Below are positions 40,401-43,400 of a stretch of DNA of 64,000 nucleotides, one piece after another. The stretch lies in the NCBI RefSeq assembly GCF_057098645.1, contig NZ_CM169472.1; one strand, written 5' to 3'. Made by a program: the position numbers. Position 1 is the stretch's first letter, and each line of letters begins with the position of its first letter.

Positions 40401-43400
40401 TCGGCTCGACCAAAGTCCAGCACCTTATTTAGCTTACAAATACCGGCATTGTTAACCAGAATATCAACTGTTCCGAAACGCTCACAGCAAGCAGCGATTA
40501 TCTTCTGCGGCGCGCCTTCTGCGGTGATATCCACCTGCATGAAGTCCACCTCAACACCCTGATTTTCAATCATTTCCTTTGTTTCGCCGTTATCTTTGAC
40601 AAAACTTGGAATAAAGACATTTGCGCCTGCTTTGGCCAACGCCATGGCAAATGCCTGGCCTAAACCGCTATTCCCGCCGGTAACAATTGCGGTTTTACCT
40701 TTCAGGGAGAAAAAATCCATTGAGAACGCATTGAGAGATTCGATTGACATAGTTAGCTCCAATTTCCGTAAGGCAAAAAAAAAGAAAGGTAACTTCCCCC
40801 GCGAGAGGGAAGTTACCTTTCTCATTATCTCTGGTAACTGGAGATAATTTTTAGCATAAGGACATAACTGCTAATGTGATCGTAATCACAGTGTGATATT
40901 CGTATTGTCAAATAATTTTAAAAAGCAGAAGCGTGATTACTCTCACACAACACCTCTGCTTTCCATGTTATTTATTATTTCAATTACTAGAGACCTGAGA
41001 AAAGTAATCCACCTGAAAGGGCGGCTTACTTTTCTCTTTTTTTTGTCTATTACAAATGGGAATACGATATGCAACACAACTCATATCGCCGTTGGATAAC
41101 CCTCGCGATAATTAGTTTTAGCGGCGGCGTTAGTTTCGACCTGGCTTATTTACGTTATATTTATCAAATTCCCATGGCGAAATTTATGGGATTCAGCAAT
41201 ACCGAGATAGGTTTAATAATGAGTACCTTTGGTATTGCAGCTATTATTCTTTATGCCCCCAGCGGCGTTATTGCCGATAAATTCTCACATCGCAAAATGA
41301 TTACTTCCGCGATGATCATTACCGGATTACTGGGTCTGTTAATGGCAACGTATCCACCGCTGTGGGTAATGCTCTGTATTCAGGTCGCATTTGCGATAAC
41401 GACGATTTTAATGCTGTGGTCGGTGTCGATTAAAGCCGCATCGTTGCTTGGCGATCATAGCGAGCAAGGGAAAATTATGGGCTGGATGGAAGGGCTGCGC
41501 GGCGTCGGTGTAATGTCGCTGGCGGTGTTTACCATGTGGGTCTTTTCTCGCTTTGCACCGGATGACAGCGCCAGCCTAAAAACGGTCATAATTATCTACA
41601 GTGTGGTTTACATCTTGTTGGGGATTCTGTGCTGGTTTTTTGTTAGCGATAACAACAACCTGCGCAGTGCCAATAACGAAGAAAAACAATCATTCCAGCT
41701 TAGCGACATCCTGGCCGTTTTGCGCATCAGCACCACCTGGTATTGCAGCATGGTGATTTTTGGTGTCTTCACCATCTACGCCATTCTGAGTTACTCCACC
41801 AACTATCTGACCGAAATGTATGGCATGTCGCTGGTGGCGGCGAGCTACATGGGGATTGTGATCAACAAAATCTTCCGCGCGCTGTGCGGCCCACTTGGCG
41901 GCATTATCACCACCTACAGTAAAGTGAAATCCCCTACCCGCGTGATCCAAATCCTTTCCGTACTCGGCCTGCTGGCGTTAACTGCCCTGCTCGTCACGAA
42001 CTCTAACCCGCAATCGGTCGCGATGGGGATTGGCCTGATTTTACTGCTGGGATTCACCTGTTACGCCTCACGCGGGCTGTACTGGGCCTGCCCTGGCGAA
42101 GCAAGAACACCGTCTTACATTATGGGCACCACGGTAGGTATTTGTTCGGTGATTGGATTCCTGCCGGATGTCTTCGTTTACCCCATTATCGGCCACTGGC
42201 AAGACACCCTGCCCGCAGCAGAAGCCTACCGCAATATGTGGCTGATGGGCATGGCGGCGCTTGCCATGGTGATTGTCTTTACCTTTTTGCTGTTCCAAAA
42301 AATTCGTACTGCTGATAGCGCCCCCGCAATAGCTAGCAGCAAGTAAGCCAGGAAAATTACAGGAGAAAAATCATGTCGAAAAAATACATCATAGGGATTG
42401 ATGGCGGAAGTCAGAGCACAAAAGTGGTGATGTACGATCTGGAAGGTAATGTGGTTTGCGAAGGTAAAGGCTTATTGCAGCCGATGCACACGCCAGATGC
42501 CGATACCGCAGAACATCCTGACGACGATTTATGGGCATCATTATGTTTTGCCGGTCACGATTTGATGAGTCAGTTTGCCGGGAATAAAGAAAATATTGTC
42601 GGTATTGGTCTGGGATCCATCCGTTGCTGCCGTGCGTTATTGAAAGCCGATGGCACGCCAGCTGCGCCATTGATTAGCTGGCAGGATGCACGCGTAACGC
42701 GTCCCTACGAACACACTAATCCTGACGTGGCCTATGTCACCTCTTTTTCGGGTTATCTGACGCATCGCTTAACCGGCGAGTTTAAAGACAATATCGCCAA
42801 CTATTTTGGTCAGTGGCCGGTGGATTATAAGAGCTGGGCATGGAGTGAAGATGCCGCAGTCATGGAGAAGTTTAATATCCCCCGTCATATGCTGTTTGAT
42901 GTGCAAATGCCAGGCACTGTTCTTGGACAGATCACACCTCAAGCCGCGCTGGCGACACATTTCCCGACAGGGCTGCCGGTTGTTTGTACCACCAGTGATA
43001 AACCGGTAGAAGCTCTGGGAGCCGGATTACTGGATGATGAAACGGCGGTGATTTCTCTTGGCACCTACATCGCGCTGATGATGAACGGTAAAGCACTGCC
43101 GAAAGATCCGGTGGCGTACTGGCCGATTATGTCTTCTATTCCGCAAACATTGCTGTATGAAGGTTACGGTATTCGCAAAGGCATGTGGACGGTGAGCTGG
43201 CTGCGCGACATGCTAGGCGAGTCGTTAATTCAGGATGCCAGGGCGCAGGATCTTTCACCGGAAGATTTACTCAACAAAAAAGCTTCTTGTGTGCCGCCAG
43301 GCTGTAATGGTCTGATGACGGTGCTGGACTGGCTGACCAACCCGTGGGAACCCTACAAACGTGGGATTATGATCGGCTTTGATTCCAGCATGGATTACGC

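Follow-up and report, generated by a model that had tools for sequence, protein, structure and literature searches.

Terminator-bearing paralogous leaders upstream of ygcW and yqcE as candidate antitermination switches linked to the GlpP-family protein YgcP

In the ygc island of Escherichia coli, ygcW and yqcE are each preceded by an intrinsic terminator located in the transcribed leader, and the two leaders are paralogous on the basis of their sequences. We consider it probable that each of them is a protein-dependent terminator/antiterminator switch, which the GlpP-family protein YgcP, encoded in the same island, would open. All coordinates given below are positions in the window, i.e. the entire 64,000-nt stretch of contig NZ_CM169472.1 that was analysed. 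The leader of ygcW comprises the following features:

40782..40823, minus strand: intrinsic terminator hairpin of the ygcW leader, with 19 pairs and a 4-nt loop.
40775..40783, minus strand: T9 (U9) tract of this terminator, read directly from the sequence.
40770..40843, minus strand: ygcW leader RNA, identical to ecr2774, a short terminated transcript of 73 nt (Romero et al. 2014, Table S5).

A preliminary description of this DNA had proposed a hairpin with a 15-bp stem and nine U residues ahead of ygcW. Both are present, the stem being slightly longer than stated: 16 contiguous perfect Watson-Crick pairs are extended by further pairs, including G-U, to a total of 19. The T9 tract ends 24 nt before the ygcW ATG (40750), in agreement with the approximate distance of 25 nt given earlier. 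The minimum free energy (MFE) of this terminator is -34.2 kcal/mol. It is the top terminator-like site within the 14 kb scanned. Folding of the minus-strand leader, which had been suggested as a check, gives z = -6.35 for the 161-nt sequence, and none of 200 shuffled versions folds equally well. Of the 5426 complete genomes of E. coli searched, 5044 contain the sequence with an identity of ≥95%.

Published Term-seq data and the short RNA demonstrate that the ygcW-leader hairpin ends transcripts in vivo, as the preliminary description had anticipated in pointing to prematurely terminated transcripts. The 3' end lies at MG1655 position 2900311, corresponding to window position 40788 (Adams et al. 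2021, PMC7815308), with a Rho score of 0.50 ('No') and an intrinsic terminator score of 15.8. The 73-nt ecr2774 extends from +1 to the T-run, at old coordinates 2898315-2898388 (Romero et al. 2014, Table S5, PMC4681348); these were converted as window = old - 2857545, an offset that reproduces the positions of two gene starts. The mapped RNA 5' end, 40843, is located upstream of the hairpin, which confirms the proposed position of the latter between promoter and ribosome-binding site. Since the RNA spans the mapped +1 to the T-run, the claim withstands the objection that the ygcW start might lie downstream of the hairpin.

The same 5' end (Romero et al. 2014, PMC4681348) disposes of a second, 8-bp hairpin, which the preliminary description had put directly ahead of the first in the RNA. 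The inverted repeat ATTATCTC (40848..40841) / GAGATAAT (40831..40824) does exist in the DNA, but it straddles the start site and cannot form in the RNA: because the transcript begins at 40843, five of the eight 5'-arm bases precede it and fall between the -10 element and +1. This arm is also unconserved, varying without compensation to ATTATTCC and ATTATCCC in other E. coli strains and to ATTCATTC in Citrobacter. The GAGAT part of the repeat is conserved because it belongs to the GAG box described below. A role of the second hairpin as an anti-antiterminator was rejected on the same grounds of overlap with the mapped start and lack of conservation; the competing structure is the P1 helix instead.

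On the plus strand, a second copy of the leader, overlooked in the preliminary description, precedes yqcE:

40997..41044, plus strand: intrinsic terminator of the yqcE leader, consisting of a hairpin (40997-41036) and a T8 tract (41037-41044).
40982..41045, plus strand: yqcE leader RNA, identical to ecr2775, 63 nt and northern-positive (Romero et al. 2014, Fig. 7, Table S5).

This terminator has 15 pairs with 2 mismatches, and its T8 tract again ends 24 nt before the ATG of the downstream gene. Its Term-seq 3' end is at MG1655 position 2900556, window position 41033, with a Rho call of 'No' and an intrinsic terminator score of 11.4 (PMC7815308). The northern-confirmed ecr2775 varies in abundance with the medium (Romero et al. 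2014, PMC4681348). Both Term-seq ends fall 3-6 nt within the stems and not in the U-tracts, which may be attributable to trimming. The two leaders can be aligned along ~100 nt, and a strict motif common to both occurs twice in 64 kb versus 0 expected occurrences. E. coli genomes carry the motif a median of 2 times, both times at the ygc locus, and no copy is on a plasmid; the 421-nt region occupies a median of 1 place per genome. The twin element probably controls yqcE-ygcE. The RNAs released by termination in the ygcW and yqcE leaders are the same molecules as ecr2774 and ecr2775, respectively. Earlier catalogues connected them neither to each other nor to attenuation or YgcP: Romero et al. 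suggested a REP-like stem-loop for the ecr RNAs, with no function given (PMC4681348), and Adams et al. listed both 3' ends as orphans upstream of an ORF (PMC7815308). A mobile or REP-like element was rejected in view of the median of 2 places per genome and the absence of copies from plasmids.

The elements preceding both leaders are as follows:

40848..40856, minus strand: extended -10 of the ygcW promoter, TGcTAAAAA, assigned from sequence, at a position that suits the mapped 5' end 40843.
40966..40974, plus strand: extended -10 of the yqcE promoter, TGtTATTTA, assigned from sequence, at a position that suits the mapped 5' end 40982.
40875..40890, strand unassigned: CRP site 1, TGTGATTACGATCACA, centred at about -40.5 from the ygcW start, a class II position.
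40932..40947, strand unassigned: predicted CRP-like site 2, cGTGATTACTCTCACA, centred at about -42.5 from the yqcE start.

Among 136 distinct copies, 106 have a TGnTA element at a distance of 16-17 nt on the 5' side of P1. CRP site 1 is bound in ETEC according to ChIP-seq (PMC4287617), its Kd in Footprint-seq is ~1.7 nM (PMC12871828), and its spacing to the element is conserved. CRP-like site 2 shows 1 mismatch to TGTGA-N6-TCACA and lies 31 nt from the yqcE element, a spacing kept in the Citrobacter, Serratia, Pantoea, Limnobaculum and Vibrio loci; yqcE-ygcE is on a list of Crp-activated operons (PMC8085971). An arrangement with one CRP site at -41.5 for both promoters, taking the yqcE start as 40924, was discarded: the yqcE 5' end maps to 40982, and the second conserved CRP-like site likewise rules out a shared one.

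According to sequence comparison, both leaders are members of a conserved RNA motif associated with YgcP across phyla. A covariance model, which scores the ygcW and yqcE leaders at 81.1 and 74.8 bits, respectively, identifies 141 copies (E ≤ 1e-4) in 1.6 Mb surrounding YgcP-like genes; the hosts range from Enterobacterales to Firmicutes and also include Anaerolineae and Spirochaete genomes. All copies except one (140/141) are followed on the same strand, at a median distance of 26 nt, by ygcW-, yqcE-, ygcU-, ygcE- or transporter-type genes, with several copies per locus, each ahead of a different operon of the same pathway. A YgcP-like gene is present in 71 loci with the element (E ≤ 1e-4) and is encoded at every element-bearing locus of sufficient length, and the four full-length loci with a YgcP-like gene but without ygcU/W/E contain no element. 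In an unbiased metagenome scan with the motif, all 5 matches fall in ygc clusters, with a ygcP-like gene on 4 of the 5 stretches. Two Ruminococcaceae matches (L061 and L080) proved on inspection to be plain terminators without the motif. No further copies occur in the window, nor before E. coli ygcU, ygcS or ygcN, the next best score being 19.6 bits. A scan of positions 30000-50000 on both strands returned no Rfam 15 match in 40700-41100 at E ≤ 1. The motif is therefore absent from Rfam, while being compact (~70 nt), highly conserved and represented by more than 140 examples.

RNAs bound by Hfq usually end in a stem-loop and a U-tail, and it could be argued that ecr2774 and ecr2775 are primarily trans-acting sRNAs with their own CRP-dependent promoter and terminator, their position being secondary. 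Romero et al. indeed call both 'potential novel sRNAs', and the ecr2775 northern signal is medium-dependent (PMC4681348); the ygcW-leader 3' end also has a high Term-seq score, 40640 (PMC7815308). Discrete short transcripts with their own promoter and terminator are, however, equally expected of attenuated leaders. The strictly cis position of 140 of the 141 copies, on the same strand before ygc-type start codons in many phyla, argues against this explanation, as do the multiple copies per locus that each head a different operon of one pathway. Furthermore, single-stranded conservation is highest at two GAG triplets in a covarying hairpin and does not form an extended seed. A primarily trans-acting function is thus rather improbable; a trans role beside the cis role is possible.

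The features that point to a regulated switch are the candidate antiterminators at the RNA 5' ends:

40811..40839, minus strand: candidate antiterminator P1 of the ygcW leader, AGUUACC (40839-40833) with GGUAACU (40817-40811).
40983..41008, plus strand: candidate antiterminator P1 of the yqcE leader, AUUACU (40983-40988) with AGUAAU (41003-41008) around AGAGACCUGAGAAA.

P1 is a helix of 6-7 bp closed by a loop of 14-19 nt, beyond which no pairing is conserved, and its 3' strand doubles as the middle of the terminator 5' arm. In the ygcW leader, the loop AGAGAUAAUGAGAAA (40832-40818) contains both GAG triplets, which are invariant columns of the motif alignment; the yqcE P1 differs from the ygcW P1 by compensatory A-U and U-A variants. 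Folding of the nascent RNA gives P1 as the MFE structure (-6.7 kcal/mol in the ygcW leader); the terminator then prevails by a calculated 15-19 kcal/mol. Both helices are conserved and covarying in the alignment. P1 pairing is found in 93% of cells versus 14-55% in slid controls, with compensatory G-C/A-U and U-A/C-G changes, and 90-91% of cells are paired in the terminator, with double changes at 8-12 pairs. At the C of GUAAC, pairing with the P1 partner is seen in 126 of 128 sequences (G-C 89, A-U 36), but pairing with the terminator partner in just 44 of 129; these covariation counts refer to sequences, not events, and the main P1 switches come from a handful of lineages. Listeria, Bacillus and one Clostridia MAG show an independent A-U to G-C swap in P1 (AGUUGCU/AGCGACU). 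Precisely opposite P1, most species have a weakened terminator. P1 with the GAG box is a candidate regulator-binding RNA site overlapping the terminator 5' arm, as judged from the alignment. In E. coli ygcW, with calculated energies of -34 kcal/mol for the terminator versus -6.7 kcal/mol for P1, antitermination would need strong co-transcriptional capture.

The high stability of the E. coli ygcW stem could suggest another view, in which the hairpins are constitutive barriers or insulators, REP-like or decay-stabilising, and ygc expression results from CRP and leakage alone; only terminated RNAs have been documented in the conditions assayed to date. Several observations make such a static role highly improbable. 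The element is non-repetitive, with its two copies per E. coli genome both at the ygc locus, and a strong constitutive terminator 24 nt before the start codon, maintained across phyla, would render the downstream genes useless. Moreover, a covarying P1 and invariant GAG triplets serve no purpose in a plain terminator, nor would weakening of the terminator just opposite P1 in most species be expected of one.

The putative regulator and the genes it would control are distributed in the window as follows:

34674..35249, plus strand: ygcP, proposed trans-acting antiterminator, 191 aa, PF04309 (G3P_antiterm).
35396..40750, minus strand: genes after the ygcW leader, namely ygcW (39965-40750), ygcU, ygcS, ygcR and ygcQ, from K-12 annotation and family scans.
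41069..43851, plus strand: genes after the yqcE leader, namely yqcE (MFS transporter) and ygcE (FGGY kinase), from annotation and family scans.

YgcP matches PF04309 over model positions 1-173 of 173 with E = 1.6e-62, so its earlier assignment to the GlpP family is well founded; its K-12 annotation is 'putative anti-terminator regulatory protein'. Among the other nine island proteins scanned, no match to a regulator family was found, which leaves YgcP as the sole regulator-like gene. The link between the leaders and YgcP is supported indirectly, by co-occurrence across phyla, by the motif scan and by the GlpP/glpD-like layout. The genes linked to the element encode SDR and Etf proteins, an FAD oxidase, an FGGY kinase and transporters. 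ygcW-ygcU-ygcS-ygcR-ygcQ are presumed to form one operon; no additional element is found within this stretch (35396..40750), and transcription of ygcU and ygcS, which have no element of their own in E. coli, presumably depends on polymerase reading past the ygcW leader.

Taking into account the relatives of YgcP in the PDB (3KTS, 1VKF), from which we take PF04309 proteins to have an enzyme-like fold, one may ask whether YgcP is otherwise employed, for instance enzymatically, and the P1/GAG hairpin binds a metabolite directly as a protein-independent riboswitch. Such a riboswitch would be a new class, because no Rfam family matches. The conserved 5' domain, its overlap with the terminator and the strict cis position before catabolic genes across phyla would all be consistent with this. 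The candidate aptamer would, however, consist of P1 alone (6-7 bp, loop of 14-19 nt), and a YgcP-like protein is encoded by each element locus that is long enough. Antiterminators that are bound by proteins, for example the targets of TRAP and of HutP (PMC2425495 for the latter), typically contain short purine triplet repeats, and the homologous family includes a genetically proven B. subtilis antiterminator (PMC9604022, PMC10573289). Direct metabolite sensing is thus regarded as highly improbable.

For YgcP-dependent antitermination, the following sequence of events may be envisaged. Two back-to-back extended -10 promoters, each with its own class II CRP site, would fire, and the first ~30 nt of RNA would form P1 (AGUUACY...RGUAACU) with the GAG triplets in its loop. 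By default, the more stable terminator would take over once its 3' arm is made, stopping polymerase ~24 nt before the start codon and releasing RNAs of about 63-74 nt. Metabolite-loaded YgcP, the effector possibly being a phosphorylated product of the YgcE kinase, would instead bind the GAG-box hairpin, keep P1 closed and leave the terminator incomplete, allowing read-through into ygcW-ygcU-ygcS-ygcR-ygcQ and yqcE-ygcE. With CRP-site promoters and YgcP-gated leaders, the island would thus need both cAMP-CRP and inducer-bound YgcP.

B. subtilis GlpP belongs to the same Pfam family as YgcP (PF04309), and its regulated promoters comprise -35/-10 elements, a GlpP binding site and a terminator (PMC9604022; also PMC10573289). 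The order of promoter, 5'-end site (a candidate in ygc) and 5' UTR intrinsic terminator is the same in the GlpP/glpD and ygc leaders. In the B. subtilis glpD 5' UTR, a GGUC/GACC helix surrounds GAGAUGAGGAGA and continues into the terminator; similarly, the glp leaders of Priestia, Lysinibacillus and Paenibacillus contain a short helix around a double purine box, GGAGAAnnGGAGA or GAGAUGAGGAGA, the 3' strand of which begins the terminator. The 5' ends are alike (AAGUUAAUA in glp and CAGUUACUA in ygc leaders), and both regulons have several leaders plus catabolite control at the promoter. The ygc covariance model gives only 18.8 and 14.5 bits on classical glpD leaders, in the range of unrelated terminators; homology between the ygc RNAs and the GlpP targets is therefore undemonstrated, and what they share is architecture and short boxes. 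In contrast to glpF/K/D, the targets of GlpP, the ygc-regulated genes encode an SDR, an FAD oxidase, an FGGY kinase, Etf proteins and transporters, and, unlike the GlpP system, the ygc system extends to Gram-negative hosts, Enterobacterales and Vibrio, in which its promoters are CRP-dependent.

In the E. coli bgl operon, a CRP-dependent promoter is likewise followed by a leader terminator, overridden by BglG. This RNA-binding protein, under the control of the substrate, recognises the RAT sequence, which overlaps the terminator, and stabilises an alternative hairpin overlapping the terminator 5' arm. YgcP differs from BglG, SacY and LicT in having PF04309 only, with neither a CAT nor a PRD domain, and the ygc RNA motif, which has no Rfam match, is unrelated to RAT. 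TRAP promotes termination and does not prevent it. Spaced triplets near a leader terminator, as in ygc, are shared with the TRAP (trp) and HutP (hut) systems, whose proteins recognise GAG/UAG triplets in leader RNAs, HutP targets having 'XAG-rich regions' (PMC2425495). In ygc there are two triplets only, both invariant GAG, in the loop of a covarying helix, and the protein families are unrelated.

The proposed switch gives the ygc island (ygcN to ygcE), ten genes in E. coli K-12 without known substrate, regulator or phenotype, a testable model in which CRP activates the promoters and YgcP would open the two leader terminators behind them. Such a model could lead to what the ygc pathway degrades. 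A limited literature search retrieved nothing relevant on the genes of the ygc island, nor on PF04309 in bacteria other than Bacillus. A more far-reaching version, in which an undescribed, phylum-spanning switch is operated by a distinct YgcP subfamily with an effector other than glycerol-3-phosphate (most plausibly the YgcE product), the leaders also acting in trans, is offered tentatively and appears unlikely as a whole; were it true, the ygc system would be the first GlpP-type antitermination regulon in Gram-negative bacteria, and the abundant ecr2774 and ecr2775 would also be trans-acting, e.g. titrating YgcP between the two operons.

The annotation history of ygcW touches the same leader. 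An old annotation began the gene at ATG 40825, inside the GAG box, and this codon is replaced by AAG, GAG or CAG in other species; as it is not conserved, a leader peptide or upstream start was rejected as a model.

Finally, the copies collected here provide a large comparative set for the GlpP family, for which RNA recognition is little understood, B. subtilis included. YgcP forms a subfamily separate from glycerol-type GlpP, with which it shares 28-31% identity, compared with 53-62% between E. coli YgcP and its Firmicute-type counterparts. The set holds natural compensatory variants as well as a pair of paralogs, YgcP-type and GlpP-type, both carried by Listeria grandensis, which need to avoid cross-talk.

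The window corresponds to the Escherichia coli ygc island, and its coordinates are converted to those of MG1655 by an exact offset of +2,859,523. The two annotated flanks of the 421-nt stretch around the hairpin, ygcW (SDR oxidoreductase) and yqcE (MFS transporter), enclose a divergent control region of 318 bp:

40750, minus strand: ATG of the ygcW gene
41069, plus strand: start of the yqcE gene

The ygcW-leader hairpin (minus strand, 40823..40782) consists of a 19-pair stem, including 16 contiguous perfect pairs, closed by a 4-nt loop. It is directly followed by T9 (40783..40775), whose end lies 24 nt from the ATG, in agreement with the hairpin and nine U residues shortly before the start codon claimed in the preliminary description. 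This is the top terminator-like site within 14 kb, and the predicted fold of the leader is much more stable than those of its shuffled versions (z = -6.35); in the Rfam search, neither hairpin nor leader motif matched any family. The plus strand contains a mirror-image element in the yqcE leader, overlooked in that description: a hairpin at 40997-41036 and T8 at 41037-41044, ending likewise 24 nt from the start codon. The two leaders are alignable across ~100 nt and have in common the strict motif TTACnAGAGA-N2-3-TGAGAAAnGTAA, of which the 64-kb window holds exactly two occurrences (expected number: 0).

Of 5426 complete E. coli genomes, 5044 carry the 421-nt stretch at ≥95% identity. A 72-nt query matched E. 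coli genomes at a median of two sites each, none of them on a plasmid; the element is therefore not a dispersed repeat. The control region is missing altogether from ~7% of the complete genomes, is reduced to fragments of 32-47 nt in a few strains, carries ~67 extra bp inside the 421-nt stretch in one strain, and varies in H1 (NCTC9104), H12 (PK8277) and H20 (2018-05-2CC).

Both terminators coincide with published RNA 3' ends, mapped by Term-seq (Adams et al. 2021, eLife, PMC7815308, supplement) and undiscussed in the text of that paper:

MG1655 2900311, minus strand: 3' end 38 nt upstream of ygcW, score 40640, Rho-dependent: No, intrinsic terminator score 15.8
MG1655 2900556, plus strand: 3' end 36 nt upstream of yqcE, score 1557, Rho-dependent: No, intrinsic terminator score 11.4

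Intrinsic terminator scores > 3 are predictive of an intrinsic terminator (PMC7815308). After calibration of how the supplementary tables print flanking sequence, the two ends correspond to window positions 40788, which is 6 nt within the A-U-rich base of its stem, and 41033, which is 3 nt within. The offset is tentatively ascribed to 3' trimming; cleavage by an RNase or the processing of reads are other possible causes. Unlike the Term-seq ends, the RNA-seq boundaries of Romero et al. (2014, Mol Microbiol, PMC4681348) extend to the ends of the T-runs. That study listed ecr2774(u+), 73 nt, and ecr2775(u+), 63 nt, as 'potential novel sRNAs' in a class of simple stem-loops, 'perhaps REP-like', with a positive northern blot for ecr2775. 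Conversion of the PMC4681348 coordinates, by an offset verified on two gene starts, gives:

40843 to 40770, minus strand: ecr2774
40982 to 41045, plus strand: ecr2775

Each RNA therefore extends from just 3' of an extended -10 (TGcTAAAAA and TGtTATTTA, respectively) to the end of the T-run; ecr2774 and ecr2775 are the terminated leaders.

The second hairpin proposed immediately 5' of the first fares differently. Its inverted repeat ATTATCTC/GAGATAAT (40848-40824) is present in the DNA, but five of the eight bases of its 5' arm precede the RNA 5' end at 40843. Together with the uncompensated variation of its 5' arm in other E. coli strains and Citrobacter, this 5' end rules it out as a relevant structure. 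An in-frame ATG at 40825, inside the leader GAG box, is the start of an earlier ygcW annotation (286 aa); it is not kept in other species, and the current K-12 start is 40750. In the predicted fold of a longer ygcW leader, the 5'-terminal CUCCAGUU (40836-40843) can pair with AAUUGGAG (40757-40764), which includes the ygcW Shine-Dalgarno sequence; such a pairing could provide a second, translational control layer.

Regarding the promoters, CRP binding at TGTGATTACGATCACA (40875-40890), centred ~40.5 bp upstream of the ygcW start, is documented by ChIP-seq in ETEC (PMC4287617) and Footprint-seq (PMC12871828), with a Kd of ~1.7 nM. These papers report only this one of the two sites. The second, CRP-like site cGTGATTACTCTCACA (40932-40947) has one mismatch and is centred ~42.5 bp upstream of the yqcE start; it probably serves the yqcE promoter, and yqcE-ygcE is listed as Crp-activated (PMC8085971). 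The site-to-element spacing is fixed at 31-32 nt for both sites in Citrobacter, Serratia, Pantoea, Limnobaculum and Vibrio, with at least one CRP site at that spacing in 58 of 62 divergent pairs.

The candidate regulator is encoded in the same island:

34674-35249: ygcP, full-length PF04309 match, GlpP family, E = 1.6e-62

The neighbourhoods of YgcP-like genes (80 loci, each species represented by one genome) were searched first with a sequence profile and afterwards with a covariance model built from both E. coli leaders. At a cut-off of E ≤ 1e-4, 141 copies were found in 1.6 Mb, with a wide score gap above noise, in Enterobacterales, Vibrio, Bacillales, Clostridia, Negativicutes, Tissierellia and one Anaerolineae MAG; more divergent ones are found in Listeria, a Bacillus and a Spirochaete MAG. 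In 140 of them a ygc-type gene follows on the same strand after a median of 26 nt; the remaining one is cut by a contig end. The genes behind them are ygcW (68), yqcE (58), a ~515-aa Clostridial transporter (7), ygcU (5) and ygcE (2). Across these phyla the gene core of YgcP, YgcW, YgcU and YgcE, with or without the Etf-like YgcQ/R, is kept, with identities to the E. coli proteins of 53-80% for YgcU, YgcW and YgcP and 42-63% for YgcE. The element is absent from all four full-length loci having a YgcP-like gene but no ygcW/ygcU/ygcE-type genes. Because the loci had been selected via YgcP, a metagenome collection was scanned with the RNA motif alone; the five matches in the whole collection all fall within ygc clusters, four directly 5' of a ygcW homolog, and a ygcP-like gene is present in four of the five stretches.

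Two or three copies each occur in L069, L070, L072, L076 and L078 (loci of Clostridia and relatives), one of them preceding the ~515-aa transporter, which by eye resembles BCCT transporters and is without an equivalent in the E. coli island; the same regulon is therefore combined with different uptake systems per phylum. In Limnobaculum eriocheiris (L035:13886-13951), all that stands in place of the divergent ygcW/yqcE control region is one hairpin between an A-run and a T-run, without P1 or promoters, as if the two inverted copies had recombined.

The consensus reads, 5' to 3', extended -10; ~8-12 nt spacer; AGUUACY; 0-4 nt; AGAG(A/C); N3-5; GAGAAARGUAAC UUCC; variable loop; 3' arm; U-run. 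AGUUACY is the exact complement of RGUAACU within the terminator 5' arm, forming a helix, P1, whose loop contains two invariant GAG triplets. Pairs were counted on a plain MAFFT alignment (114 sequences) and a model-based one (141). The terminator pairs in 90-91% of cells, with double changes at 8-12 pairs; P1 pairs in 93%, versus 14-55% with the partner slid by 1-3 columns. Of 128 sequences, 126 allow the C of GUAAC to pair with its P1 partner (G-C 89, A-U 36, U-G 1); pairing with the terminator partner is possible in no more than 44 of 129, and the neighbouring terminator pairs are mostly G-U. Selection therefore acts on P1 itself, and most species have a terminator weakened at exactly the positions where P1 competes. 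A further independent swap, AGUUGCU/AGCGACU, appears in Listeria, Bacillus sp. DNRA2, a Clostridia MAG and an Enterobacteriaceae MAG. These counts refer to sequences and not events, the switches going back to a handful of lineages. Energies computed for the actual transcripts (kcal/mol) are:

ygcW leader: P1 alone -6.7; terminator MFE -34.2; best P1-containing fold -15.6
yqcE leader: P1 alone -1.4; terminator MFE -21.6; best P1-containing fold -6.5

P1 is the MFE fold of both nascent RNAs until the terminator 3' arm emerges, and in the best P1-containing fold the U-tract has no adjacent hairpin. Termination is therefore the default, matching the observation in LB, and a factor keeping P1 closed would, according to these folds, abolish it.

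In the proposed mechanism, cAMP-CRP would turn on both promoters, and transcription would terminate by default in both leaders. We infer that YgcP, loaded with a presumed pathway metabolite, would bind the 5' GAG-box hairpin and stabilise P1, allowing polymerase to enter the putative operons ygcW-ygcU-ygcS-ygcR-ygcQ and yqcE-ygcE. A scan of nine other island proteins gave no regulator-family match, and no further element was found before ygcU, ygcS or ygcN in E. coli. A trans-acting sRNA role, the published label, may be a function additional to the cis role; the element keeps strictly to its cis position across phyla, which speaks against a main role in trans. A protein-independent riboswitch is unlikely, considering the tiny conserved domain, the triplet motif of protein-bound type and the constant presence of YgcP alongside the element. 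A constitutive barrier or REP-like element is contradicted by copy number, selection on P1 and location 24 nt from the start codons.

The proposed antitermination by YgcP has a close parallel in B. subtilis, where GlpP with glycerol-3-phosphate blocks termination in the glpD, glpFK and glpTQ leaders, and the controlled promoters comprise -35/-10, a GlpP binding site and a 5' UTR terminator (PMC9604022, PMC10573289). The glpD 5' UTR has a GGUC/GACC helix around GAGAUGAGGAGA, leading straight into the terminator, and this helix is the nascent fold. In classical glpP-glpF-glpK-glpD loci fetched from Priestia, Lysinibacillus and Paenibacillus, the leaders have AAGUUAAUA at +1 and GGAGAAnnGGAGA in a short terminator-overlapping helix, the equivalents in the ygc leaders being CAGUUACUA and AGAGAnnnnGAGAAA. 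On these leaders the ygc covariance model scored 18.8 and 14.5 bits, indistinguishable from ordinary terminators. Identity to glycerol-type GlpP is only 28-31% for YgcP, whereas the E. coli protein and its counterparts of Firmicute type share 53-62%. The ygc system is classed with the GlpP kind of antitermination, as a case that has an RNA sequence family of its own and presumably another effector, and not as a copy of glp, because the architecture is common to both, yet the ygc model misses glp leaders and YgcP is only 28-31% identical. Listeria grandensis encodes both paralogs (28% identity; L065, P0129/P0144), each with its own leader motif variant, and offers a natural setting in which to study how cross-talk between them is prevented.

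The terminators and short RNAs (supplementary tables) and YgcP's homology-based name are already published; the literature search found nothing linking the three, or on the twin arrangement or the conserved motif, which is missing from Rfam. Because a GlpP homolog already points to antitermination, the result should not astonish specialists. The analysis nevertheless provides a concrete regulatory model, easy to test, for an uncharacterised K-12 island and two orphan RNAs, and supplies >140 natural variants of a putative protein-binding RNA.

Elsewhere in the window, an ORF-internal Term-seq 3' end (PMC7815308; MG1655 2892741, window 33218, plus strand) lies in ygcN, the first gene of the ygcP-containing operon, just 3' of a GC-rich hairpin near the ygcN 5' end. 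The intergenic stretch between ygcU and ygcS carries, on the minus strand (38378-38399), a GC-rich hairpin of 9 bp (CGGCUUCUC...GAGAAGCCG) that lacks a clear U-tract; it might mark a point of processing or of partial termination within the presumed operon. In the convergent ygcP/ygcQ gap, the REP-derived RNA naRNA4 matches weakly at 35288-35348, below threshold (29.8 bits versus a gathering score of 59.5); this is probably a REP element. Two CRISPR arrays (18611-18941 and 44428-44635), one with six repeats and one with four, share the E. coli type I-E repeat GTTCCCCGCGCCAGCGGGGATAAACC at a period of 61 nt, with a degenerate repeat at 43898-43923; the second adjoins the 3' side of ygcE and has Term-seq 3' ends inside it (Adams et al., PMC7815308).
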